Shown: in pieces, positions 3,106-28,624 of the stretch
Numbering within the stretch: the first letter of the stretch is position 1
Layout: every line of letters starts with the position of its first letter
From: an uncultured Thermotogae bacterium
Lineage (GTDB): Bacteria > Bipolaricaulota > Bipolaricaulia > UBA7950 > UBA9294
Length of the DNA: 28,624 bases
Assembly: GCA_964504085.1 (NCBI GenBank)
Contig: CAZDDA010000001.1
Coordinates: 1-28,624 of the forward strand
Reading direction: 5' to 3'
Program-made: the position numbers and the translations under genes
Notes under the pieces: model-generated
Databases searched by the model: none
What the model was told of the DNA's origin: nothing
The model's input: the letters and a program-made list of their open reading frames with translations, nothing else

Positions 3106-4962
3106 ATGGCTGACCTGGTTAGCTGTCTCGTCGACACCGACTCGGGCCCTGGATACGACTATTCGTCACTCAACGCCGCAGATGCGGCGAACTTTGGAGC
3201 CACGAGCGCCGATTTGGTAAGCGAGGACGAATACGTCGAGTGTGAGTGTGCGTGTTCGAGCGGGAGCGCAGACACTGCTGCCGTGCATGTGACTGGGTTT
3301 ACGGTGGACTCAACTCGATATGTCCACATCTTCACTGATACGAACCGGCATAATGGGGCGTGGGACACCTCAGGGTATCGCTTGGTCGTCAACAACAATA
3401 CTGCATGTTTGCGTATCTCAAATTCGTACGTTCGAGCCGTAGGGTTGCAGCTACAGAACACATATCCTACATCAGATAGCTGGCCTCATCGTGAGATTTC
3501 TGCTACTACTGCTGGCACAACGCATGTTCGAATCGACTCCTGTGTCTGTCGTTGTACACGGACGCCGAACACCGCAAATGCCCAGATACTTATGATGAGC
3601 CAAGTCGTCTCGATTGTCGTCAATACGGTCGTCTATGGTGGATACAAGGGCATTCACATCTATTCAGACCAAACAGGACATGAAGTCGTTTGTTACAACA
3701 ACACGGTGGCGGACTGCTCGTATCGCGGCTACGAGTTGGCACCAAAGAGCCCATGGCCAGCATGGACGCTCCATCTAAAGAACTGTCTCGCCGACAACAA
3801 TAATCCCGATTTTTACATCAACACGTTCAATCTCACGACCGATTATGCCGACAACATGTCAAGCGACACGTCGGCACCTGGAGGGGATGCACACCACAGC
3901 GCAAGCAACAGTTTCGCTGGAACCGGTGATTACCACCTAGACAGCGCTGATGATGCTGTCGGTGAGGGAACAGATCTTTCATCTGATTCAACATATCCAA
4001 TCACCACCGACATCGACGGCGACACGCGCAGTGATTGGGACATCGGAGCGGATGAGATCGCGAGTAGTGGCGTTCAAGCAAATGTTTCTCCGGCATCAGC
4101 TACCTGGAACGCGGGTGCAAATGGTGTCCAACTCGGCGGAATTTCCGTCGACGCATCGCCAGTATCGGGGACATGGGCAGCTGGTGCGACTGGGATTTCG
4201 CTCAGCCTCCAGATCACCACGGCCTCAGCCAGCGGTACATGGAATGCCGGGGCGACGGGAATCACCCTCGGCGGGATCGGAGTCTCGGCAGCAAGTGCAG
4301 TCGCAACCTGGAACGCTGGCGCGACTGGCGTTGGGCTTGGCGGAGTGTCCGTCAACGCAGCTCCGGCATCGGGGACATGGGCGGCCGGCACTACCGGAAT
4401 CACGCTTGGCGGTATTGCGGTCTCCGCTGTGAGTGCGGCAGCCACATGGAACGCTGGCGCTTGCAATGTCTCCCTTGGATTGGTCGTCACGCTCTCGAGT
4501 GCGTCCGCCTCATGGCACGCTGGATCGACAGGAATCACGCTTGGCGGAATCTCCGTATCCGCCTCGAGTGCGGGCGGGACTTGGAACGCTCAAGCTCTCG
4601 ACATTTCCCTCGGCCTCGAGGTCTCGATCACGCCAGCATCCGGCACTTGGGGAGCCGGAGCGACAGGCGTCTCACTTGGCCTGGTCGTCACAACCGGGTC
4701 GGCTGCCGCAACCTGGAACGCCGGCGCGACTGACGTCTCTCTCGGAAATCTGGCGATCACGATCTTGAGCGCGGCCGGTATCTGGACGGCAAGTGAAGTA
4801 ACCGTGTCCAGCGCAAATCTGTTCGAACGAGTCTACGGGGGTGTGGCAAGTGCTGAGGCGGTCTACGGGGGCGGTGTCGACGAGAGCGTGGCGATCGATG
4901 GCGGAGGAGTTGCACTGGCAGAAGGCACGTACGGAGGCGCTATCGACGAAGCCGAGCCGTGA
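3106..4962 (+). CDS. Fibre/adhesin-like protein: parallel beta-helix (pectin lyase-like) N-domain plus C-terminal Trp repeats (618 aa)
   Basis: Beta-helix-like strings (VVNTVVYGG, YNNTVADC, LKNCLADN, DYHL...AVGEG, DIDGD.R..WDIGADE) followed by 11 repeats of 22-23 aa. Confidence 0.75.
   Translation: MADLVSCLVDTDSGPGYDYSSLNAADAANFGATSADLVSEDEYVECECACSSGSADTAAVHVTGFTVDSTRYVHIFTDTNRHNGAWDTSGYRLVVNNNTACLRISNSYVRAVGLQLQNTYPTSDSWPHREISATTAGTTHVRIDSCVCRCTRTPNTANAQILMMSQVVSIVVNTVVYGGYKGIHIYSDQTGHEVVCYNNTVADCSYRGYELAPKSPWPAWTLHLKNCLADNNNPDFYINTFNLTTDYADNMSSDTSAPGGDAHHSASNSFAGTGDYHLDSADDAVGEGTDLSSDSTYPITTDIDGDTRSDWDIGADEIASSGVQANVSPASATWNAGANGVQLGGISVDASPVSGTWAAGATGISLSLQITTASASGTWNAGATGITLGGIGVSAASAVATWNAGATGVGLGGVSVNAAPASGTWAAGTTGITLGGIAVSAVSAAATWNAGACNVSLGLVVTLSSASASWHAGSTGITLGGISVSASSAGGTWNAQALDISLGLEVSITPASGTWGAGATGVSLGLVVTTGSAAATWNAGATDVSLGNLAITILSAAGIWTASEVTVSSANLFERVYGGVASAEAVYGGGVDESVAIDGGGVALAEGTYGGAIDEAEP
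4072..4812 (+). repeat. Coding tandem repeat: 11 units of ~66-69 bp (consensus VxxxxASxxxTWNAGATGIxLG)
   Basis: Trp recurs every 22-23 residues, counted in the translation. Confidence 0.9.
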
Positions 4963-5315: not shown

Positions 5316-6098
5316 ATGCCACAGGTTACCGTCCAACATGACCTAAGCCGCGCTGATCGGTTCATTAAAGGGTACGAGCGCCAGCTGCCGTTCGCCACGT
5401 CTCTCGCAATCAACAACACGGCCAAGGACTTCCAGACTACTGAGCGGGCGCATTTGCTGAGTGAGTTCGAAGTGCGCCGAAGACAATGGGTCGAGCGAAA
5501 CGTCAAGATCAAACCGTTTTCGACAAAGAGAAAACTCGAAGCGAAGGTGGCCGTTCAATCACCCGGGTCCGGTGATCGCTCTGACATCCTAGCCAAGTTC
5601 GAAAAGGGTGGGCTCAAACGACCCACAAAGCGCCAGGCTCTCGCGATACCGGATGAAGCGCGGCGCACAAAAGCTGGCGTGCTCGCCAAGGCCGGGCGCC
5701 CGCGAGCGTTTAGACTCAGGCTTTGGGGAGTGGGCAAAGGAGGGGTGCGCATCTATCGAGGCCGCAAACGCACCTTCATGATCCAATACCCGGACGGCAC
5801 CGGAGGAATCTACCAGCGCGTAGGCAGGCGGTCGAAGCGTAAGTACCGGCGTGTCAGCGGTAGCAGTGGCACACGTGACACCGCCATCCGCACGTTGTTC
5901 CGATTCACAAGCCAGGCGCGCATCGATGATCGGCTGGACTTCGTGAGCACAGCTCAGCGAGTAATACATGTCCGTTTTGGGCCGAACTTCCACGAAGCCC
6001 TTGAGCGGGCAGTGCAGGCGCGTGGCGGTTCAACGCCCAGTCGCCAGCAAGTGCGAATCGCGAAGGCTGACATCTTCGGCAGAGATCGGGAATCGTGA
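5316..6098 (+). CDS. gpZ-like (minor tail Z / tail completion) protein, paralogue 1 (260 aa)
   Basis: Arg/Lys-rich, with QLPFATSLAIN...GIYQR...LFRF...F..NF.EAL..A motifs typical of the Z-like genes found upstream of terminases. Confidence 0.7.
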   Translation: MPQVTVQHDLSRADRFIKGYERQLPFATSLAINNTAKDFQTTERAHLLSEFEVRRRQWVERNVKIKPFSTKRKLEAKVAVQSPGSGDRSDILAKFEKGGLKRPTKRQALAIPDEARRTKAGVLAKAGRPRAFRLRLWGVGKGGVRIYRGRKRTFMIQYPDGTGGIYQRVGRRSKRKYRRVSGSSGTRDTAIRTLFRFTSQARIDDRLDFVSTAQRVIHVRFGPNFHEALERAVQARGGSTPSRQQVRIAKADIFGRDRES

Positions 6099-7027
6099 GA
6101 CGCTGCAGCCGCTGTCTCGAACTGCTTCCACTCAAGTCGTTCTACCGACGGAACGATAGCAGACGCGGGCCGCAAGGCATGGGCTTGTTCGCCGGATCGT
6201 TCCAGTCGGCTCAGTACAGTGGAGTGTGCAAGCAGTGTCATGAAGCAGTACCTAGTCGCAATACTGAGCGGAGACAGGAGGAACGACGTCGATACGCAGT
6301 GACAAGGGGCAAGGAGTACCTCACAGCTGAGCAATTCGCGGAACGTAATGCTGCCCGACGAGTGCCGGAGAACGTCCGGAGAATAAGCCAGCCGGCTGAG
6401 GTTCAATTCGAGCGCGCATTCAGGCGGGCTGTGTTAGAAATCCGGAGGACTCACGTTCCGGCAATCCTGTGGTCCATCGTTCAGCAAAGAGTCAGCAGGC
6501 GGCGTTATGATCGCACCGCATACCGAGAATGGTACAAGAAGAAAGGCGATGCGATACGTGCCGCATATAGGCGCAAGTATCGGAGTAATCCCACTGCCGA
6601 GCGAGCGCGAGTACGAAACTACAAGCACGCCAACCCACATGCCGTCGCGAAGTGGGGTGACAGAAGACGCCGGCGCGCAGCAGCAGCGGATGACGGTACG
6701 CTAGCCAAAGATCGCGTGAAACGTCTGTTCGCTACGACAAAGCGTTGCCACTACTGCGGCGAGCGTTTTACGCACGCAAACCCAGCGACCTTAGATCATG
6801 CGACACCACTGAGTCGTGGAGGTAGGCACTCTATCTTCAATGCCGTCATTTGTTGTCGTAAATGCAATAGCTCCAAAAGGGACAGAACCTACAACGAGTT
6901 CGTTGCCGGTCAACTGGCGCTCATCGGTCATCTCGGGTCCTGTGAGCGCCCTCACACTACGGGTAACGCGCCAGGTCGATGCTCATCTATACACCAACAA
7001 CTGAGGTACCCATGTCGGGTCTTTTAG
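6095..7027 (+). CDS. HNH endonuclease with N-terminal Zn finger (310 aa)
   Basis: CHYC...TLDHATPLSRGGRH...NAVICCRKCNSSK HNH motif, N-terminal CSRC...CKQC, GTGA overlap with the upstream gene. Confidence 0.9.
   Translation: MRRCSRCLELLPLKSFYRRNDSRRGPQGMGLFAGSFQSAQYSGVCKQCHEAVPSRNTERRQEERRRYAVTRGKEYLTAEQFAERNAARRVPENVRRISQPAEVQFERAFRRAVLEIRRTHVPAILWSIVQQRVSRRRYDRTAYREWYKKKGDAIRAAYRRKYRSNPTAERARVRNYKHANPHAVAKWGDRRRRRAAAADDGTLAKDRVKRLFATTKRCHYCGERFTHANPATLDHATPLSRGGRHSIFNAVICCRKCNSSKRDRTYNEFVAGQLALIGHLGSCERPHTTGNAPGRCSSIHQQLRYPCRVF
6935..6980. other. Candidate cos/packaging initiation region
   Basis: GGGTCCT followed by the TGTGAG/CTCACA palindrome (6941-6956) and CGGGTAACGCGCC, about 90 bp upstream of terS, which is the usual position for lambda-type cos. 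Confidence 0.35.
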
Positions 7028-7028
7028 C

Positions 7029-7658
7029 ATGACTCCCCAGAGGAAGAAGAGCAAGAAGAAGGCGACATCGCCCTCCCGGAAATCCACGAAGAGAACCAAG
7101 AAAGCGACATCAGGTAAGAAGAAGACCGCAAAGGCGAAAAAGCCCGTTTCCAAATCCAGATCTCCGGTAGAAAAACGCACCCTTCTTACCCAGACCGAAC
7201 TCGCCCGAGTCTTCGGGGTCACGACCAAAACCGTGCAGCGGTGGGTGGAGCGCGGTCTCCCGCGCGAGGGCGAGGGTCGCAAAGCCACCTACCCTCTTGA
7301 ACCCTGTATCGCGTGGGTGCGGGAGAAGGATCGGGAGGAAGCGATCGATGCCGCGAGGCCGCGGACTCTGGAGGAGGCACGGATCCGGAAAGCGACCGCG
7401 GATGCGGAGCTCGCGGAATATGAGCTGGGCTTGAGGCGGAAGGAGCTCATGACCGTTGCCCAGTACAACGCTGCCGTGTCGGGCGCGTTCTCGAGGGTGA
7501 AAGCTCAATTAGTCACCCTTGAGAACAGACTCGCACCTGACGTGATTGGGATTCAGAAGCTCCTGGACGCACGATCGATCGTCCGCGAACACGTGCAACG
7601 AATCATGCAGGTTCTGTACGACGCCAAAGACGTGCCGGAATATGACGAGAAGGTATGA
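7029..7658 (+). CDS. terS: Terminase small subunit (Nu1-like) with Lys-rich N-terminal extension
   Basis: HTH LTQTELARVFGVTTKTVQRWVERGLP, coiled coil EARIRKATADAELAEYEL, ATGA overlap with terL. Confidence 0.9.
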   Translation: MTPQRKKSKKKATSPSRKSTKRTKKATSGKKKTAKAKKPVSKSRSPVEKRTLLTQTELARVFGVTTKTVQRWVERGLPREGEGRKATYPLEPCIAWVREKDREEAIDAARPRTLEEARIRKATADAELAEYELGLRRKELMTVAQYNAAVSGAFSRVKAQLVTLENRLAPDVIGIQKLLDARSIVREHVQRIMQVLYDAKDVPEYDEKV

Positions 7659-9565
7659 GTCTCGGAGACCGCCTGCACGGAGCCAAAGCCGCACGTCTGA
7701 ATGAGACGCAGTTTCGGCAATCGGTCTTCGCCCCTCCATCCGACCTCACGGTAAGTGAATGGGCGGATAAGCACCGGATTCTGAGCGAGGGTACTTCTCC
7801 AGAACCAGGTCCTTGGCGCACATCCCGCGTGCCCCACCTGCAAGAGATCATGGACGCTCTGGGTAATCCGGCAGTCGAACACATCGTGTTCGTGAAGTCC
7901 TCTCGCGTCGGTGCCACGGAAGCCATCAACAACTTCCTCGGCTACACGATCGACCAGGCGGCGGCCAACACGATGGTCATTCACCCCACCGTCGAGGAGG
8001 CGAAAGGTTGGTCGAAAGAACAGGTCGCACCGATGCTCCGCGACACTCCGCGGCTCAGAAACCGTGTCACTGATCATGAGTCCGGCCGGCGAGAAAGTGG
8101 CGACACGATTCAGTACAAGGAGTTCACGGGCGGGAATCTGGTCATCATGGGAAGCAACAGTGCATCAGGTCTGCGCCGGCGAAACATCCAGAACGTACTG
8201 GGTGACGAGCGTGACGCGCACGCCGCATCGGCGAAGGGTGGTATCAGCAAAGAAGGCGATCCATTCGAGCTCGCGATCAAGCGCACTGAGAACTTCCCGA
8301 TCAGAACCATCTTCGAGGCGTCATCACCTACGATCAGGGGGCTGTCTCGTATCGAGCGAGCATATGCGTTCTCCGATCAGCGACACTACTACGTGCCCTG
8401 CCCCCACTGCGGACACATGCAGGTCCTCAAGTGGCGGAATCTCAAATACACGGTCAAGTCGGACTCCAACCCCGAGACCGAAGAAGAGACCGACGATATA
8501 GACGTCGTATACATCTGTGGTGAGATCTCCAAAGACGGCGAACTCGAGGCGGGTTGTGGAGCAGAGATCACGGAAGAGCACAAGGCGTGGATGGTCCGGA
8601 ACGGCAAGTGGGTGGCGGCAAGACCTGGTCGGAAGGTCCGCGGCTATCACATTTGGGCGGCTTACTCGCTTCTCACGACGTGGTCGAGACTCGTCTCGCA
8701 GTGGCTTCGGGCACAGGGCGATGACGAGCTGCTGCAGGTATTCGTCAACACCGTGTTGGGCGAGAGCTGGAGTGAGACGGGTGAACACGTCCAACACGAT
8801 TCGCTCATGGCACGGAGGGAGCGATACGAAGCAGAGATTCCGAAACGCGCCGGCGTGCTCACTATGGGTGTTGATGTTCAGGGCGATCGTCTCGAGTACA
8901 GCACTTGGGCTTGGGGTGCAGGTGAAGAGTCGTGGCTCATCAAACACGAGGTCCTCTGGGGCGATCCCGCGAAGACAGAAGTGTGGGAGCAGCTGGACCT
9001 GGTGATTGGACGCGCCTGGAGGCATGAGTGCGGCGCCGAACTCAAGGTGAGATCAGTTTGCGTTGACACTGGAGGTCATTACACCGACGAGGTTTACCGC
9101 TATTGCAAGTCCCGAGAGAAATACGGAGTGCACGCAGTGAAGGGGGTGTCTGAACCGGGGCGCGCCGCCGTCGGGAATCCATCCAAGAAGAACCGGGGTA
9201 AGGTGAACCTCTTTCCGCTCGGCACGGAGGCCCTCAAAGACACCATCTTTGCGCGGCTCAAGGACGCCGCAGCCGGTCCGCGTTGCATGCACTTTCCATG
9301 GGTGGACGCCGAATATTTCAAGCAACTCACGTCCGAGGTGGCCTATACGCGGTATGTTAATGGCAGGCCTGTCCGCAGATACGTATTGAAGGAGCATGAA
9401 CGGAACGAGGCTTTGGACTGTGCGGTCTATGCCCTTGCGGCCCTCATCATCCTTGGTCCCGTCCGCGATCAACTGGGTGTGATCGTCGAAGCCGTGCAGC
9501 AGGGCAAGCAACTGACGCAGGCGAAACGTGGCCGGCGCGTCAGGTCACGCGGCATCACCAGGTAA
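7655..9565 (+). CDS. terL: Terminase large subunit, lambda GpA family
   Basis: Walker A VKSSRVGAT, Walker B VLGDE, CPHC Zn site, nuclease acidic motifs GVDVQ, VDTGG and RNEALDC. Confidence 0.97.
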   Translation: MSLGDRLHGAKAARLNETQFRQSVFAPPSDLTVSEWADKHRILSEGTSPEPGPWRTSRVPHLQEIMDALGNPAVEHIVFVKSSRVGATEAINNFLGYTIDQAAANTMVIHPTVEEAKGWSKEQVAPMLRDTPRLRNRVTDHESGRRESGDTIQYKEFTGGNLVIMGSNSASGLRRRNIQNVLGDERDAHAASAKGGISKEGDPFELAIKRTENFPIRTIFEASSPTIRGLSRIERAYAFSDQRHYYVPCPHCGHMQVLKWRNLKYTVKSDSNPETEEETDDIDVVYICGEISKDGELEAGCGAEITEEHKAWMVRNGKWVAARPGRKVRGYHIWAAYSLLTTWSRLVSQWLRAQGDDELLQVFVNTVLGESWSETGEHVQHDSLMARRERYEAEIPKRAGVLTMGVDVQGDRLEYSTWAWGAGEESWLIKHEVLWGDPAKTEVWEQLDLVIGRAWRHECGAELKVRSVCVDTGGHYTDEVYRYCKSREKYGVHAVKGVSEPGRAAVGNPSKKNRGKVNLFPLGTEALKDTIFARLKDAAAGPRCMHFPWVDAEYFKQLTSEVAYTRYVNGRPVRRYVLKEHERNEALDCAVYALAALIILGPVRDQLGVIVEAVQQGKQLTQAKRGRRVRSRGITR

Positions 9566-9642: not shown

Positions 9643-9693
9643 GAGAGGCCACTGGGCCCTTTCCCCGTTGGGATGCGGGGAGGGGGCCTTTTT
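9643..9693 (+). terminator. 51-nt leader/intrinsic terminator element, copy 2
   Basis: Same GAGAGGCCAC motif, 14-bp stem and U tract as 1097-1147. The stem differences are C-to-U changes opposite G. Confidence 0.85.
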
Positions 9694-9707
9694 CTTTTGG
9701 GGGACAG

Positions 9708-10034: not shown

Positions 10035-11647
10035 GCACCGCCGTCGTTCCCCGGGTCGAAGTGCCCAAGCCCACAATGATCGACAGGGCGATCGAGTATT
10101 TCGCCCCTCAACGCGCCGTCAGGCGACTCCACGCGCGGGCGGTCTTGAGCTTCGCAAGCGGAGGCTATGACGGCGCTCGCACCGACCGTCCTGCGACAAG
10201 GGAATGGCAGCCTCGAGGCGGAGACGCAGACGAGAACCAGCTGCCCGATCTTCCGATGCTCCGGAGGCGAAGCAGTGACCTCGTGCGCAACGCCCCTGTC
10301 GCCGCCGGTGCTCTTGAGACAACCGCGACTAGCACTGTCGGCGCCGGACTCGTCCTTCATGCCCGCATCGACCGAGATCTCCTCGGACTCTCAGAGAAAG
10401 AAGCAGACGCGTGGGAGCGCGATGCCGAACGTTTCTTCGCTGCCTGGGCCGGGAGTCACGCCTGCGACATCACGAGGCGCCACGATTTCTATACGCTCCA
10501 GGATGTTGTGTTCCGTTCGCAGCTGGAGCGTGGCGACGTCTTGGTGATCCGGCGGTACCGTGAGCGCCCTGGCGAGCTCCTCGGATTGAAGCTTCAGCTG
10601 ATTGAGGCGGACAGAATCTCGAATCCCGAAGACCGCGCTGACAGCGATCGACTGAAGGGTGGAGTTGAGATAGACAGTTTCGGGGCCCCAATCAGGTACC
10701 ATGTCGCAGACAAGCATCCGGATTCCGGTTTGTACCGCGGCCAGAGGCAATGGAAGCCGGTGCCGGCATTTGGTCAGTCGGGAGAGAAGCTCGCTCTACA
10801 CGTCTTCAAGCCGGACCGTGTCGGCCAGACCCGAGGCACACCCATTTTCGCACCAGTGATCGAGACGCTGAAACAGCTCGAGCGCTACACCGGTGCGGAA
10901 CTATCGGCGGCCGAGATCTCCTCGTTCTTCACAGCTTTTATCAAGTCGGCCGTCGAAGCAGAAGCCGGATCCGGTCTCGCGCCTGTCGATGCGGACGATC
11001 CAGATCCACCTGCCGCATCGAACTACAAAATGGGGCCGGCAGCCGTACTCGACTTGGCTCCAGGTGAGGACGTCGAGTTCGCCAATCCGACGCGGCCCAA
11101 CGCGCAGTTCGATCCATTCTTCCAGGCTGTGCTTCGTCAGGTGGGTCCAGCAATCGGTCTGCCTTTCGAGCTGCTCGTCCTGCACTTCACATCGAGCTAC
11201 AGTGCGTCGCGGGCGGCAATGCTCGAGGCATGGCGCAGGTTCATGACCCGCCGCTGCTGGCTAGCCCGTCTCTTCTGCCAACCCTCTTACGAGTGGGCGA
11301 TTACCGAAGGGGTGTTGCGTGGCATCATCTCGGCGCCGGGTTACCTGCAGGACCCGATCATCCGGCGAGCCTGGCTCGGTTCGGAATGGATCGGTGGAGC
11401 TCAGGGTCAAATCGATCCGCTCAAGGAAATCAAGGCCGCCGAAGGCCGTACGACGCTCGGAGTCACGACGCTCGCCGAAGAGACTGCTCAGATGACCGGT
11501 GGCGATTGGGAGCGGAAGCATCGCCAGCGTGTGAAGGAAGAGCGTATGCGACGGCGCGACGGACTGGTCAGCGCGACCGCCTCACTCCCCGACGAGGAAG
11601 AGGCGGACTCCGGCAAGCAGGAAGAGGAGGAAGACCGTGAAGACTAG
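10031..11647 (+). CDS. Portal protein, lambda family
   Basis: GYDGA, RSSDLVRN, DRVGQTRG, YSASRAAML and IDPLKE motifs, plus synteny. Confidence 0.96.
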   Translation: MSTAVVPRVEVPKPTMIDRAIEYFAPQRAVRRLHARAVLSFASGGYDGARTDRPATREWQPRGGDADENQLPDLPMLRRRSSDLVRNAPVAAGALETTATSTVGAGLVLHARIDRDLLGLSEKEADAWERDAERFFAAWAGSHACDITRRHDFYTLQDVVFRSQLERGDVLVIRRYRERPGELLGLKLQLIEADRISNPEDRADSDRLKGGVEIDSFGAPIRYHVADKHPDSGLYRGQRQWKPVPAFGQSGEKLALHVFKPDRVGQTRGTPIFAPVIETLKQLERYTGAELSAAEISSFFTAFIKSAVEAEAGSGLAPVDADDPDPPAASNYKMGPAAVLDLAPGEDVEFANPTRPNAQFDPFFQAVLRQVGPAIGLPFELLVLHFTSSYSASRAAMLEAWRRFMTRRCWLARLFCQPSYEWAITEGVLRGIISAPGYLQDPIIRRAWLGSEWIGGAQGQIDPLKEIKAAEGRTTLGVTTLAEETAQMTGGDWERKHRQRVKEERMRRRDGLVSATASLPDEEEADSGKQEEEEDRED

Positions 11648-13028
11648 CGTCCCTGGTCAGATGACGTTCGAGACGATGTCTCCCAAGGAGATGGCGGACG
11701 TGTTCACCGAGAGGCATGCCGGCGAACGCGATCGGCCGCGGCGCGCGTACCTCGCGGCACTCGGCACAGTGTGGGCGATGACGGAGGAGTGGGTGGAGAC
11801 CGTCCTCCAGATCGCAAACCGTGAGAACGATTCGATCGAGGCAGTGGAAGCGAGGCTCGGCCGGGAGCTCGACAACACGCAGAGTGTCACTATGCGAGAC
11901 GGTGTGGCGACGATACCGATCCGCGGCCCGCTCATGAGGTACGGTAACCTCCTGTCACGCGTCAGTGGTGCGAGCTCGTACCAGGTGCTCGCAACCGACT
12001 TCACTACTGCGATCGAAGACTCAGCTGTGAAGGCCGTTCTGCTGGCCGTCGACAGTCCCGGTGGGACTGTGAACGGAGTCGAGGAACTCGGAGAATTGAT
12101 CTATAAGGCGCGCGGTATAAAACCGATCGTCGCGCACGTTTCAAACGATGGTGCGTCGGCTGCTTACTGGATAGCGAGTGCTGCCGACGAGATCCTGGCC
12201 GGCAAAACAGCGGTACTCGGTTCGATCGGCGTGCGCTCCACGTATGTCGACTACCGCGGATGGGAAGAGAAACAGGGTATCCACACCTACGAGTTCCTCT
12301 CGAGCCAATCCCCGAAGAAAAAATTCGATCCTGAGGTGAAGGACGATCGCGCGCGCCTGCAGGTGCTGCTCGACGACCTCGCTGAAGTCATGGGCAATGC
12401 CATCGGGCGAAATCGCGGGATTACTGCTCAAGAGGTCTTTGAGACCTATGGCGCCGGCGACGTGATGGTGGGAGAGCGGGCTGTTGACGCAGGTCTCGCC
12501 GATCGGATCGGCACGTATGAGGAGATTCACGCCGAGCTCGCAGCTCGGGTATCGGATTCGAAATCACTTCTGTTCACGGGCGGCGCGGCCGCCAACGACA
12601 AGGAGCCAGAAATGTCGGATGAGAAAAAGACACCTGACACGCCCGACACCGAGGCCAAAAAGCTGACGGCCGAGCAGATCGCGGAGCAGTACCCGGATTT
12701 CGTGAAAGCGTGGCGGAAGGAAGGCGCTGATGCCGAGCGCGCACGCCTGAAGGGTATCGACGCACTCGCTGAAGCCGGACATGAGGACCTCATCCAGGAG
12801 TGCAAGGACAATCCCGACTGCACGCCTGAGACCGCGGCGTTTCGCATGAAATTGGCCGAGAAGAAAGCGAAAAAGGACGGGCTCGACGCCCTCGAGAAAG
12901 ACGAGGAAGAACTCGATCCTCCAGATCCGCACGGCTCGGAAGAGTCGGATCCGGGATCCGAGGCTGCGATCGCGCGGAGAATTCTATCCGCCGGCAGGGT
13001 CGAGGTTCACAAGAAGACGGCGTCCTGA
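11637..13028 (+). CDS. Head maturation protease (S49, gpC-like) with C-terminal scaffold
   Basis: IPIRGPL, VDSPGG, ASAAYWIASAAD and GSIGV motifs, with an acidic coiled-coil C-terminal third (AERARLKGI). Confidence 0.93.
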   Translation: MKTSVPGQMTFETMSPKEMADVFTERHAGERDRPRRAYLAALGTVWAMTEEWVETVLQIANRENDSIEAVEARLGRELDNTQSVTMRDGVATIPIRGPLMRYGNLLSRVSGASSYQVLATDFTTAIEDSAVKAVLLAVDSPGGTVNGVEELGELIYKARGIKPIVAHVSNDGASAAYWIASAADEILAGKTAVLGSIGVRSTYVDYRGWEEKQGIHTYEFLSSQSPKKKFDPEVKDDRARLQVLLDDLAEVMGNAIGRNRGITAQEVFETYGAGDVMVGERAVDAGLADRIGTYEEIHAELAARVSDSKSLLFTGGAAANDKEPEMSDEKKTPDTPDTEAKKLTAEQIAEQYPDFVKAWRKEGADAERARLKGIDALAEAGHEDLIQECKDNPDCTPETAAFRMKLAEKKAKKDGLDALEKDEEELDPPDPHGSEESDPGSEAAIARRILSAGRVEVHKKTAS

Positions 13029-26420: not shown

Positions 26421-26451
26421 AAAAACCCCCCGCGCGTTGAACGCAGAGGGT
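26421..26451 (-). terminator. Intrinsic terminator closing the minus-strand accessory block
   Basis: Minus strand ACCCTCTGCG-TTCAA-CGCGCGGGGGG followed by TTTTT. Confidence 0.6.
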
Positions 26452-26479: not shown

Positions 26480-26674
26480 TTAATGCTTGGCGAGTAGCCT
26501 ATCCACACGAGTTCTGACTAACCGCCTTGTGCGTTCGTCCTCCGTCGCCTCCGCTGGGCCTCGCTTCGTTGGTTGTTCCCGGGTCATCTTGCGTACCGTC
26601 TCCTGCATACTCCTCTCGCGATTGCGGAGCAACTCCGTCAGGTCCCGTCCCCGTACTAGTGTCTGTTTTTTCAT
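26480..26674 (-). CDS. Small helical protein nested in the 3' end of the protease gene (64 aa, alternative frame)
   Basis: Charged helical sequence. The overlapped part of the protease frame is low-complexity. Possible SD GAAGGGA. Confidence 0.45.
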   Translation of the reverse strand: MKKQTLVRGRDLTELLRNRERSMQETVRKMTREQPTKRGPAEATEDERTRRLVRTRVDRLLAKH

Positions 26675-27581
26675 TTTCAGGTGTCTTCCCTTCGTTGAGA
26701 TCTAGTCCCAAACCATCTGGGAGGCTAATCTCAGTTGAGAGAAACATAACCTCATCCATCTTCGATAGGGTAATAGGTGCCCGGGCATGCTCTCCCAGAC
26801 TTTTTGCCAACACCGATTCCTCGTGAGTCGGCGCGCGCACATTGTCGAATAACTTTCTAGCCTCTTCCCTGTCGATGACGAAACCATGTGAAGGATACCC
26901 GGATATTATGTGATCGAGTCCTTCGCAGTTTGTGTTTGCTCCCACCTCCAACAAGATCTGTCCGTAATGATCTGCTATCTGCACCGCCCGTGCTGCTTCT
27001 CCAACATGGAGAGGATCTATCTGTCGTATTAGGGGGGCATATATGCCGGTTACAAGCTGAGTTGCGATGTCTGCCGCAGTTTTGACCTTAATGGCACCGC
27101 CGCTACCACCTTCAATTTGCAGGAAGAACCGTTCGAAGGCCAAATATGCCCTGCTCTGCAATGTCGACAGAGCCGCGGTTACTGTTAGTCCGGATTGCAT
27201 GTCCCATAGTTCATCCTTCTTTGACATCTGTACGTCAAGTGGCCCGAGTTCGCCATGGTCGTCAAAAACTAACTCATGAGCTCCAATGGCCACGAGTGTG
27301 CCGGCGCTCTTACAAAACCCAGATACGTAGAGGTGGAATTGTTGATACTGTGTTTGCAAGCACCGGGCCATACGGAACGCAACGTCTGGGCTGCCACCAG
27401 GTGTGACGAGGAGTAGGATCGCGTTGGGCCGTCTATTTCTCTCAGAAACTGCCGAAATCAGTTTGAGGCAAACTGGCCTGTCGAGGTTCCCATTGTAGAA
27501 GAGCACGTCCGCATCGAGCTGTTCGGCGACGGCATCGGCGCGTTCTATGATCGAGATCTCTTGTGTGTCTTCAGGCGTCAT
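26499..27581 (-). CDS. SDH-family ClpP-fold serine protease (360 aa)
   Basis: LVTPGG, CKSAGTL (catalytic Ser), GELGPLDVQ, IDP and YPSHGFVIDREEA motifs. Confidence 0.88.
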   Translation of the reverse strand: MTPEDTQEISIIERADAVAEQLDADVLFYNGNLDRPVCLKLISAVSERNRRPNAILLLVTPGGSPDVAFRMARCLQTQYQQFHLYVSGFCKSAGTLVAIGAHELVFDDHGELGPLDVQMSKKDELWDMQSGLTVTAALSTLQSRAYLAFERFFLQIEGGSGGAIKVKTAADIATQLVTGIYAPLIRQIDPLHVGEAARAVQIADHYGQILLEVGANTNCEGLDHIISGYPSHGFVIDREEARKLFDNVRAPTHEESVLAKSLGEHARAPITLSKMDEVMFLSTEISLPDGLGLDLNEGKTPENEKTDTSTGTGPDGVAPQSREEYAGDGTQDDPGTTNEARPSGGDGGRTHKAVSQNSCG

Positions 27582-27645
27582 CTAGTCAACCTTATCTTGC
27601 AATACGCCATAAAATGCCGGTTTGTTCCTGTTTGTCTAGGGTGTT

Positions 27646-27666
27646 CCTCACCATCTCCACGCATCC
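27646..27666. repeat. 21-bp direct repeat copy A (CCTCACCATCTCCACGCATCC)
   Basis: Exact match to 28309-28329. Confidence 0.9.
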
Positions 27667-27667
27667 A

Positions 27668-28252
27668 TCATACCGTTCCCTGCGGAATGTCGGGAAGGCT
27701 TCTACGGTGGCCGTGATCGAACGGCCGGCCTTTCCCAAGAGTTCGTACAACTTCCATAAGGCTGCCGTGCCGAACAAGAACCATCATTAAAGGCTCTTGT
27801 ATGGCATCGACAGCACCTCGCAATCCTGAGATACCAGCTGATTCGAGCGCCTTCGGGTCACCAGTATGAATCGCCTCAATCTCTTCAACCACGAGCGTTG
27901 AAATGGCATGTTGGAGGTGTGCCATAGTCTCTGCGACCCGCCCCTCACCGAACGCCAACGCCACCTTGACCACACATGCTTTCGATTTCACCTGTGACAC
28001 CAGGCGGTCACCGATGGTGTTGAGACGGTTTTCCCACGTGCGCGACATTTCTTTGTTATGTGGTTTTGCCAGCGCGCGCTCCAACATCTCCCGTGCCGCA
28101 AACAGCTGATTCCGCAACGCATCAACGTCCTCTACCCACGCGGAGACTTCCATGGCAACGCGGCGTCGAAATGCAACCTGTTCGTAGAACATGTTGACGA
28201 GTACTGCCAGAAGTGCACCGAGGATACCTGACAACAAGACATCGACACTCAT
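27668..28252 (-). CDS. Membrane-anchored hypothetical protein (194 aa)
   Basis: N-terminal TM helix VLLSGILGALLAVLVNMFY followed by helical soluble domain. Confidence 0.75.
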   Translation of the reverse strand: MSVDVLLSGILGALLAVLVNMFYEQVAFRRRVAMEVSAWVEDVDALRNQLFAAREMLERALAKPHNKEMSRTWENRLNTIGDRLVSQVKSKACVVKVALAFGEGRVAETMAHLQHAISTLVVEEIEAIHTGDPKALESAGISGLRGAVDAIQEPLMMVLVRHGSLMEVVRTLGKGRPFDHGHRRSLPDIPQGTV

Positions 28253-28308
28253 AGAATCCTCGAATCACAACCTAGCATGCCCATTTTTCGCTCCTCGTCT
28301 ATCCTTTC

Positions 28309-28329
28309 CCTCACCATCTCCACGCATCC
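28309..28329. repeat. 21-bp direct repeat copy B
   Basis: Exact match to 27646-27666, 663 bp apart. Confidence 0.9.
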
Positions 28330-28377
28330 CTCACACGTGGTGGGGTTTCCGGCGGGATGTAGCGGGCACGCTGTCTT

Positions 28378-28611
28378 TTACTTGGTTCTGGTGTATTTGA
28401 AATAGTATACGTGCCACGTGCCAGCTGCGTCAGACCCGCCCGCGTGCGCTTGGCAGCCGTATTGCTGCGCGGCATTCGTCTCGTGCGCCTGGGCATCCTC
28501 CCGTCTGGCGTACCGCGCCAGGATTGTCCAGTTCGTCATTCCGACAACATGCCTATCCCAGTACTTCTTGCGTCCGTCAGGATCTGTCGTGATTCCTACT
28601 CTGCATGGCAT
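28378..28611 (-). CDS. Small GIY-YIG-like hypothetical protein (77 aa)
   Basis: SD GGAGGT. The RVGITTDPDGR..YW...A..HE pattern recalls a minimal GIY-YIG core. Confidence 0.7.
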   Translation of the reverse strand: MPCRVGITTDPDGRKKYWDRHVVGMTNWTILARYARREDAQAHETNAAQQYGCQAHAGGSDAAGTWHVYYFKYTRTK

Positions 28612-28624
28612 GTCCTACCTCCAT

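Follow-up and report, generated by a model that had tools for sequence, protein, structure and literature searches.

An exact 21-bp repeat brackets a single accessory gene

The DNA analysed here, a stretch of 28,624 nt (contig CAZDDA010000001.1; hereafter the window), was assigned by family searches to a tailed phage whose plus strand carries a packaging and head module of the lambda type. Close to its end, a short minus-strand block of accessory genes converges on the plus-strand lysis genes. Read in its own direction, this block comprises a gene for a 77-aa protein, a gene for a transmembrane (TM) protein and a gene for a serine protease, and is closed by an intrinsic terminator (Table 1). 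The three are typical moron-type cargo genes, and the G+C content of the block is 0.53-0.55 as against 0.59-0.63 for the remaining phage. A 21-bp sequence, GGATGCGTGGAGATGGTGAGG, recurs exactly on either side of the TM gene, and it is this repeat, with its relatives beyond the window, that is the subject of the present report.

Two exact matches to the 21-mer were found in the window, both on the minus strand (copies A and B). They are 663 bp apart with the TM gene between them, the positions and spacing being those given in a preliminary description made from the letters of the window. The chance expectation was 0 (100 dinucleotide shuffles) and no third match was detected in the 28,624 nt, even when three mismatches were allowed. 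Copy B begins 2 nt past the stop codon of the TM gene and lies 64 nt ahead of the protease ATG, while 56 nt separate the end of copy A from the ATG of the TM gene. The motif contains TGA stops in two frames, ATG and GTG triplets, and GGAG and GGTGA strings.

The likeness between the two copies exceeds the core. A repeat search of the window aligned 60 nt at 75% identity, and 19 of the 32 nt that follow the core are identical in register (binomial p = 5e-4; shuffle p = 2e-4). Ahead of the core, 5 of 7 nt are identical, and further upstream the resemblance is at chance level. A core matching at 21/21 positions is thereby set between flanks of ~59% identity on one side and unrelated sequence on the other. 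The A/B repeat is real and statistically solid. A plain tandem duplication is excluded as its source, because the TM gene and the protease are unrelated and homologues of the protease stand alone elsewhere.

Table 1 Features of the accessory block and of the two repeat families. Positions refer to the window unless a contig is named.
Feature	Position	Strand	Basis or remark
Intrinsic terminator, 11-bp stem then T-run; closes accessory operon	26425..26451; L001 11802-11828	-	Terminator scan
Protease cargo gene, 360-aa Clp-fold (SDH/NfeD-like) serine protease; last gene of operon	26499..27581	-	phrog_21683, 5.8e-74
Mini-ORF B, MVRNTLDKQEQTGILWRIAR, then stop; 20 codons from motif ATG; ends 10 nt short of protease ATG	27592..27654	-	ORF reading
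Extended element B; its 5' TGA is the TM gene stop codon	27614..27673	-	Repeat family and in-register test
Core copy B	27646..27666; L001 10587-10607	- (window), + (L001)	Exact match, exact core
TM cargo gene, 194 aa, hydrophobic N-terminal helix	27668..28252	-	ORF
Mini-ORF A, MVRERIDEERKMGMLGCDSRIL, then stop; 22 codons from motif ATG; TGA overlaps TM ATG (ATGA)	28249..28317	-	ORF reading
Extended element A: GT-TGA-, core, ~32 nt purine-rich leader resembling B in register	28277..28336	-	Repeat family, 60 nt at 75%
Core copy A, GGATGCGTGGAGATGGTGAGG, between 77-aa gene and TM gene	28309..28329; L001 9924-9944	- (window), + (L001)	Exact match, exact core
77-aa cargo gene (MPCRVGITTDP...), upstream of copy A	28378..28611	-	ORF
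Shine-Dalgarno region of 77-aa gene; window end is haplotype breakpoint	28612..28624	-	L001/L002 alignment
Copy C, before DUF2188 gene	L001 9317	+
Copy D, after SNIPE/T5orf172 gene; no gene downstream	L001 7712	+
AATGTCCCAA repeat	L001 5513-5572, 5912-5971, 8087-8146; L026 7433; L022 1085(-), 1107(+)	mixed	e.g. AATGTCCCAAGAACG...CCCCAAAAACGC.CTA.CGGAAGC

Further copies stand beside cargo that differs between haplotypes

The comparison loci were metagenome contigs encoding the TM protein. There are ten of these (JGI, ENA and Logan assemblies; sediment and seawater samples), and the position of the gene is constant. The phage is present in JGI 3300029267, 3300017987/9 and 3300029258, in ERZ27256770/78 and in two SRA studies. 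The portion examined of the longest contig (46,983 bp), termed L001, is collinear with the window and extends 10 kb past its end. Window position 28624 corresponds to L001 9629 and to position 1663 of L002, which represents a second haplotype also seen in L018 and L025. Haplotypes were compared in assembled contigs only (Logan contigs for four runs), and the evidence on the motif comes from one phage population in three haplotypes.

Further copies past the end of the window, for which the preliminary description had advised a search, were found. The repeat is thus not confined to the pair around the TM gene, a limit to two copies being among the outcomes that the description itself had named as refuting. 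L001 contains four exact copies of a 12-nt core, GGATGCGTGGAG, against 0.01 expected, all of them intergenic and on the sense strand of the accessory genes (copies D, C, A and B). The other 27 kb of the window hold no copy of this core. L002 also carries four copies, at 1247 (E), 1614 (F), 1958 (A) and 2621 (B), of which E reads AAATGCGTGGAGATGGTAACG and F reads GGATGCGTGGAGACGGTGAGG; in copy D the sequence is GGATGCGTGGAG...GGATACGTGAGA. Ten consecutive nucleotides, ATGCGTGGAG, are unchanged in 6/6 copies across their differing contexts. The distance from the end of the 21-mer to the next called start is 40 nt for C, 41 nt for F, 56 nt for A and 64 nt for B, and in copy E the start lies inside the motif.

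Rightwards from L001 9629, the two haplotypes are 99.97% identical over 10,957 nt, a stretch that runs from the 77-aa gene through copy A, the TM gene, copy B and the protease to the lysis and tail genes. Leftwards of this point they have only two patches in common (83-89% identity), past which the sequences are unrelated. The cargo on this side consists in L001 of a 138-aa gene, a gene for a receiver-domain protein, a 30-aa stub, copy C and a DUF2188 gene, and in L002 of an 85-aa gene and a gene for a 210-aa membrane protein, followed by copies E and F with an intact 114-aa gene between them; copy F stands directly before the 77-aa gene. The 30-aa open reading frame (ORF) of L001 is the 114-aa gene with an internal deletion between two AATGG strings, and shows the decay of a gene to a junction-flanked stub. 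A degenerate motif copy ahead of this stub was considered; alignment gives it no support.

Homology between L001 and L002 resumes directly after copy E. In run X1, a minor contig of 777 nt (depth 4.4 versus 15 for the main form) carries a perfect motif before the 114-aa gene, and here a third, unrelated sequence abuts the 5' edge of the motif. Two of the three haplotype breakpoints thus abut a copy. The window itself ends exactly at the haplotype fork, L005 starts there and contigs of several assemblies break there; the assemblies appear to break at a population-level fork or recombination junction.

Two of the proteins encoded in the accessory region of L001 beyond the window were recognised by family. 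One is a 531-aa SNIPE/T5orf172 protein of the GIY-YIG superfamily (6041-7636, +). The other is the receiver-domain protein (8592-9200, +; 202 aa), whose C-terminal 80 residues match no known output domain.

The mini-ORFs are probably incidental

The preliminary description read a short ORF from the ATG inside each window copy (mini-ORFs A and B), remarked that D, G and L stay in register between the two peptides with a synonymous CTA/TTA change, and proposed that the repeat supplies a coupled leader peptide under peptide-level selection. Both mini-ORFs and the similarities between them are present as described. The inference of peptide selection is not borne out, however, because the ATG is lost in some copies, the ORF ends vary and the substitutions follow no coding pattern. 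The ATG is replaced by ATC in copy C and by ACG in copy F, two of the six copies. ORFs read from the shared GTG run for 24, 22, 11, 7 and 6 codons and have no common end point. Only mini-ORFs A and B stop close to the next gene start; copy E shares the reading frame of the 114-aa gene, and no gene follows copy D.

Over the 12 codons that follow MVR, a small sample, substitutions between A and B fall 7:3:5 at codon positions 1:2:3, with no third-position excess. The peptides are significantly similar in register (p = 4e-4). This similarity mirrors nucleotide homology, since the other frames keep comparable numbers of identities (5 and 3, versus 4 in the mini-ORF frame). The mini-ORFs are probably incidental by-products of the ATG and GTG triplets of the motif.

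A wider model, in which each copy provides either a translated mini-ORF or a Shine-Dalgarno-rich stop/restart linker that couples the downstream cargo to the upstream gene, appears unlikely. It would fit the overlap between the stop of mini-ORF A and the TM ATG, and the termination of mini-ORF B 10 nt before a protease start that is preceded by a weak AAGG Shine-Dalgarno only. Also in its favour, the TGA stops of the motif, in two frames, adjoin ATG and GTG triplets as well as GGAG and GGTGA strings, the leaders are rich in purines and lack structure (fold z-scores -1.6 to +1.1), and the copies are located at or shortly past upstream stop codons. Against the model stand the lost ATGs and divergent ORF lengths, the 7:3:5 substitution pattern, and a peptide similarity that is not independent of nucleotide homology. 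Moreover, the GGAG string directly adjoins the ATG, a spacing of zero that does not favour initiation; good Shine-Dalgarno sequences of their own precede the TM, DUF2188, 77-aa and 114-aa genes; and in a relative (P0125, see below) the upstream gene uses a different frame of the motif.

A second repeat family lies upstream of the accessory operon

A second repeat, of ~60 nt around AATGTCCCAA, occupies a promoter-like position before three plus-strand transcription units of L001. At L001 5507-5536 the repeat lies between CTGACG and TATGAT. It was also found before an operon of a 99-aa and a 109-aa gene in a metagenome-assembled genome (MAG), treated in the next section, and as an inverted pair in L022. 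The AATGTCCCAA repeat probably serves as a promoter or operator that is shared.

A consensus scan detected neither a sigma-70-like promoter nor a terminator at any copy of the 21-bp motif; for the promoter this is a weak test, as the promoter type of the host may differ. Since the promoter-like AATGTCCCAA repeats lie upstream and neither promoter nor terminator occurs at the copies, we place copies C, A and B inside one operon. A promoter of the extracytoplasmic function (ECF) type, GGAAC...CGT, was examined by eye and rejected for inconsistent spacing.

Rfam returned nothing at E <= 1 across the 7.1-kb block. RNA folds at the copies were no better than those of shuffled sequences (z-scores -1.6 to +1.1), and no stable or shared hairpin was seen among them. 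DNA folds around A and B on both strands (z-scores -1.06 to +0.05) gave no inverted-repeat or hairpin potential. The motif thus shows no structure, Rfam match or promoter that would point to another function.

The invariance of ATGCGTGGAG in six copies whose flanks are diverged or unrelated might instead be ascribed to selection on a cis-regulatory site, bound by a phage or host protein either as stoperator-like DNA or as start-associated mRNA, which would control each cistron. In favour of such a site, the motif is asymmetric, always on the sense strand and always intergenic. Its core also resembles two direct half-sites ~10 nt apart (GATGCGTG / GATGGTGA; in copy D, GGATGCGTGGAG...GGATACGTGAGA), and the gene for a response regulator, the receiver-domain protein, lies within the same operon. 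Nonetheless we hold this explanation to be improbable. The copies number only four, all within a single 3-kb block, and none is near the promoter-like repeats, whose motif is AATGTCCCAA; the next start lies anywhere between 14 and 85 nt away, and copy D is followed by no gene at all. Domain scans revealed no recognisable DNA- or RNA-binding domain in the response regulator, which is, furthermore, absent from the 1.25 kb of L002 upstream of the motif copies (up to the contig end), where the motif is kept.

A Gemmatimonadaceae locus is the likely source of the motif

For the 114-aa protein just two more remote relatives were found, 72% and 68% identical to it. One of them is encoded on a 12-kb contig of a MAG labelled 'uncultured Gemmatimonadaceae bacterium' (L026, CAYTDU010000090.1; also L020 and others), where the neighbouring genes specify a Ser/Thr kinase, a Yip1 protein and an S41 peptidase. 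In L020 and L026 the motif occurs as a single copy, CGTGGAGATGGTGAGA, that forms the last residues and the stop codon of the 99-aa gene (...DPPVVRSTWRW, then stop). It sits 10 nt ahead of the ATG of the 109-aa gene, the homologue of the phage 114-aa gene, with which it shares ~80% DNA identity over 294 nt. This type of locus was recovered from every sample that holds the phage (L020, L021, L026, L027-L032).

Read in the same frame, the phage copies give DAWRW and a stop (A and B), DAWRS and a stop (C), DAWRR and a stop (F) or NAWRW followed by TAA (E), with copy A continuing upstream as ..PPRVRDAWRW. At the protein level, the 99-aa family does not conserve its tail: P0125 uses another frame (..VQMIRGDISDRR, then stop) and P0126 stops earlier. 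Because the MAG copy is single and coincides with a gene end, and because the tail is not conserved at the protein level, the motif is best read as a nucleotide-level relic of the 99/114-aa junction. On this comparison, the gene junction of the MAG is the likely source of the motif.

The host of the phage is probably a member of the Gemmatimonadota. As a hint to the host, the MAG locus and the phage share the ~80%-identical gene, the junction motif and the AATGTCCCAA element. A separate observation is that the N-terminus of the phage 138-aa protein (L001 8152-8568, +; MIPANEVSM...) weakly resembles an internal segment of P0124, the MAG 99-aa protein (residues 32-71, MIPAISEVSM...; one comparison, E = 0.045), and the locus may have undergone a further mosaic fusion here. 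We also considered whether leaders A and B might be remnants of the 114-aa gene at its 5' end. The resemblance is suggestive by eye (DEER..G), but local alignment was not significant (p = 0.07-0.95).

Given such an origin, the copies could be functionless, that is, the ends of repeatedly truncated 99/114-aa gene pairs kept by recency alone. The position of the motif at a gene end in the MAG, the decay of the 114-aa gene to a 30-aa stub in L001 and the orphan status of copy D are consistent with this, as are the post-core leaders, which lack significant similarity to the 5' end of the 114-aa family, and the want of any function-associated signal in the Rfam, fold and promoter scans. Uniform decay, however, would leave 21/21 identical positions in A and B within flanks of ~59% identity with a probability of only ~1e-4 (our own estimate, 0.65^21). 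Two of the three haplotype breakpoints abut the motif, and the genes that stand between copies are unrelated. We therefore regard functionless relics as a rather improbable account.

No dedicated recombination system was identified

The preliminary description had proposed a cassette array in which cargo genes are added or swapped at a short recombination repeat, and had not recognised it as an integron. Protein scans covered the window and the 10 kb beyond it, with ~8.7 kb of the 46,983-bp contig outside their reach, and no tyrosine or serine recombinase or integrase domain was detected in the proteins scanned. The absence of an IntI-type integrase and of an attC hairpin agrees with the view that the locus is no integron. 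As for a mechanism dedicated to the array, none could be recognised: there is neither a recombinase nor an attC-like fold, and one of the three breakpoints falls at a Shine-Dalgarno sequence and not at the repeat.

These results bear directly on the idea of an integron- or att-like site-specific system, in which the core would be the crossover site of a recombinase that inserts promoterless cassettes. Exact direct repeats do bracket a single-gene unit, and co-oriented promoterless cassettes do lie behind one promoter-like element with cargo that varies between haplotypes. Yet no recombinase domain was found in the proteins scanned, the DNA on either strand has no inverted-repeat or hairpin potential (z-scores -1.1 to +0.05), and the copies differ inside the presumed core. 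Such a system is very unlikely. A bolder variant would make the core an active att-like cassette-exchange site of a Gemmatimonadota phage, dependent on or assisted by a recombinase and equipped with stop and restart signals for immediate expression of the cargo; we consider this a long shot. Were it true, the site would be a phage counterpart of the integron, built from the relic of a gene junction.

Other classes of repeat were rejected. The A/B mismatches are not adenine-specific (by eye) and no reverse transcriptase domain was found in the scanned proteins, which speaks against template and variable repeats of a diversity-generating retroelement. CRISPR arrays, miniature inverted-repeat transposable elements and target-site duplications were dismissed because the geometry is wrong and there are no inverted repeats.

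Searches of sequence collections were likewise negative. INPHARED contained no DNA match. IMG/VR contained no exact 21-mer, and its five matches to a degenerate pattern were single-copy, chance occurrences in unrelated sequence; neither the protease nor the TM protein had a match in IMG/VR. A motif scan of JGI metagenomes returned three chance matches and one contig of the L002 type. The nearest homologues of the phage holin (54-71% identity) are encoded on differently organised contigs that do not carry the motif.

A portable junction relic is the favoured explanation

The reading that we favour, to which we give about an even chance, is that the motif is a portable relic of an intercistronic junction that marks, and probably mediates, homologous shuffling of cassettes in a hyperplastic moron operon. 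The 21-bp repeat would be the best-kept core of a junction of ~30-60 nt, composed of the 3' end of the 99-aa gene together with the ribosome-binding region and 5' edge of a gene of the 114-aa family. This junction would have been copied between successive cargo genes of one accessory operon, which is itself transcribed from a promoter-like repeat of its own, further upstream, as far as one terminator, and would have been carried along with the cargo genes or have captured them. The copies may then serve as short patches of homology between which general or phage recombination adds, deletes and exchanges genes. The perfect 21 bp of A and B amid diverged flanks could represent the interval in which the crossover took place when the TM gene came to lie between the 77-aa and protease genes. 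Since it offers stops in two frames and Shine-Dalgarno-like GGAG and GGTGA strings, the junction would be a harmless, possibly helpful linker for any pair of genes.

Several observations weigh against the portable junction. A repeat of 21 bp is short for efficient homologous recombination without a phage recombinase, and none was identified in the scanned proteins. The retention of ATGCGTGGAG in six contexts could equally reflect selection for a sequence-specific function. The breakpoint at L001 9629 coincides with the Shine-Dalgarno sequence that serves the 77-aa gene, and the closest copy of the motif is ~295 nt away. No second motif-bearing lineage was found in IMG/VR or in the JGI metagenome scan. 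Finally, the TM gene is present in 8/8 contigs that carry the protease, and neither a joint lacking the 663-bp unit nor a circle of it was seen in the assembled contigs. Of the array with swapped cargo that was first proposed, what stands is a family of repeats beside which the cargo differs; exchange of the 663-bp unit itself, fixed in all eight contigs, found no support.

Cargo genes and other features of the phage

The cargo proteins of the window are poorly represented in family collections. Searches of Pfam, PHROGs, NCBIfam, PADLOC and the phage genome collection gave no match to the TM protein, the 77-aa protein has no significant family match in Pfam, PHROGs or NCBIfam, and the PADLOC defence models match none of the three window cargo genes. 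The protease matches phrog_21683 and, below cut-off in both cases, Pfam SDH_protease (7.7e-07) and NCBIfam Clp_like_SDH (5.9e-10). Its homologues, ~42% identical, are lone accessory genes in Burkholderia phage vB_HM387, where the gene adjoins an integrase, and in a Klebsiella prophage-derived phage; the Burkholderia phage is P2-like. Two proteases of the ClpP/SppA fold are encoded by the phage, the S49 prohead protease (11637-13028, +) and the accessory SDH/NfeD-like enzyme.

The plus-strand packaging and head genes specify an Nu1-like small terminase, a gpA terminase, a lambda-family portal, the S49 prohead protease and capsid protein E, and a holin with three TM segments of the gene transfer agent type (3TM GTA-type) is also encoded on this strand. 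An HNH endonuclease gene (6095-7027, +) lies directly 5' of the small and large terminase genes, an order common in cos-type phages. Upstream of the packaging genes, a 618-aa ORF (3106-4962, +) contains degenerate repeats, especially at 4090-4750, with periodicities of 66-69 nt and 135-138 nt (..ACCTGGAACGC.GG.GC.AC.G..), which imply a repetitive protein segment. A terminator-like cassette, consisting of a 55-nt G+C-rich hairpin and a T-run, occurs at 1097-1151 and 9643-9697 (+), the two copies being 91% identical; one stands before the first plus-strand gene block and the other after the terminase gene. The loop and 3' stem of this hairpin read GGATGCGGGGAG, one mismatch from the core GGATGCGTGGAG, which may be coincidence.

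Comparison with known phage elements and implications

By analogy, the motif is functionally closest to the PeSLs (promoter early stem-loops) of T4-type phages and to the boundary sequences of lambdoid phages, and is a member of neither group. PeSLs combine a sigma-70-like promoter with a terminator stem-loop, mini-circles have been shown for them, and homologous recombination between repeat copies has been proposed as their mechanism (Arbiol et al. 2010, PMC2839356; Comeau et al. 2014, PMC4122927). As with PeSLs, short conserved intergenic repeats here flank small, mostly orphan genes of a hyperplastic region, and indels or replacements between near-identical phages may be associated with the repeats, two breakpoints abutting the motif and one lying ~295 nt away. 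Unlike PeSLs, the motif has no stem-loop and, on a weak scan and with a host promoter type that may differ, no promoter; it is located inside a polycistronic operon, measures only ~21-60 nt and derives from a junction of gene end and ribosome-binding site.

Boundary (linker) sequences of lambdoid phages and mycobacteriophages are short homologies at gene boundaries, proposed to guide recombination between unrelated modules (PMC3029335). The motif resembles them in its location at gene boundaries and in the two of three haplotype breakpoints that abut it. Boundary sequences, however, are normally one patch shared by different phages, whereas here four co-oriented copies occupy one operon of one genome.

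Two families of short repeats in mycobacteriophages also invite comparison. The start-associated sequences and their extended form (SAS/ESAS) of Cluster K phages lie 3-7 bp from the start codon, and 93 sites occur across the six genomes compared (Pope et al. 2011, PMC3203893). In common with these, the motif is asymmetric, occurs in a single orientation and among non-structural genes only, has a GGAG Shine-Dalgarno core in all copies, may take in the stop codon that ends the preceding gene, and stands before genes of unrelated families. It differs in its distance of 14-85 nt from the start and in having four copies only, one of which precedes no gene. The stoperators of Cluster A phages, sites of the L5 repressor, are 13-mers that number >20, are spread genome-wide and share sequence with the early-promoter operator (PMC9283540). 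They too are asymmetric sites in short intergenic spaces, oriented with transcription; the four copies of the motif, in contrast, are confined to a single 3-kb block, a different motif, AATGTCCCAA, marks the promoter-like repeats, and no repressor was identified.

With integrons the locus shares co-oriented promoterless single-gene units, a recurring site between them and a common promoter ahead. It departs from them in that the scanned proteins include no IntI-type integrase and the site has no attC hairpin or R'/R'' core, being the relic of a gene junction. As matters stand, the motif is a well-documented local curiosity of one phage population and not a new class of system.

If the copies do guide recombination, the locus would be a compact example of a temperate-type phage that reshuffles a moron or defence-like operon by means of tiny patches of homology. 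It would extend the idea behind PeSLs and boundary sequences to elements that are neither promoter nor terminator. The probable host phylum, the Gemmatimonadota, is one whose phages are almost unknown, and here the source of the patch may be traced to a gene boundary in the probable host itself.

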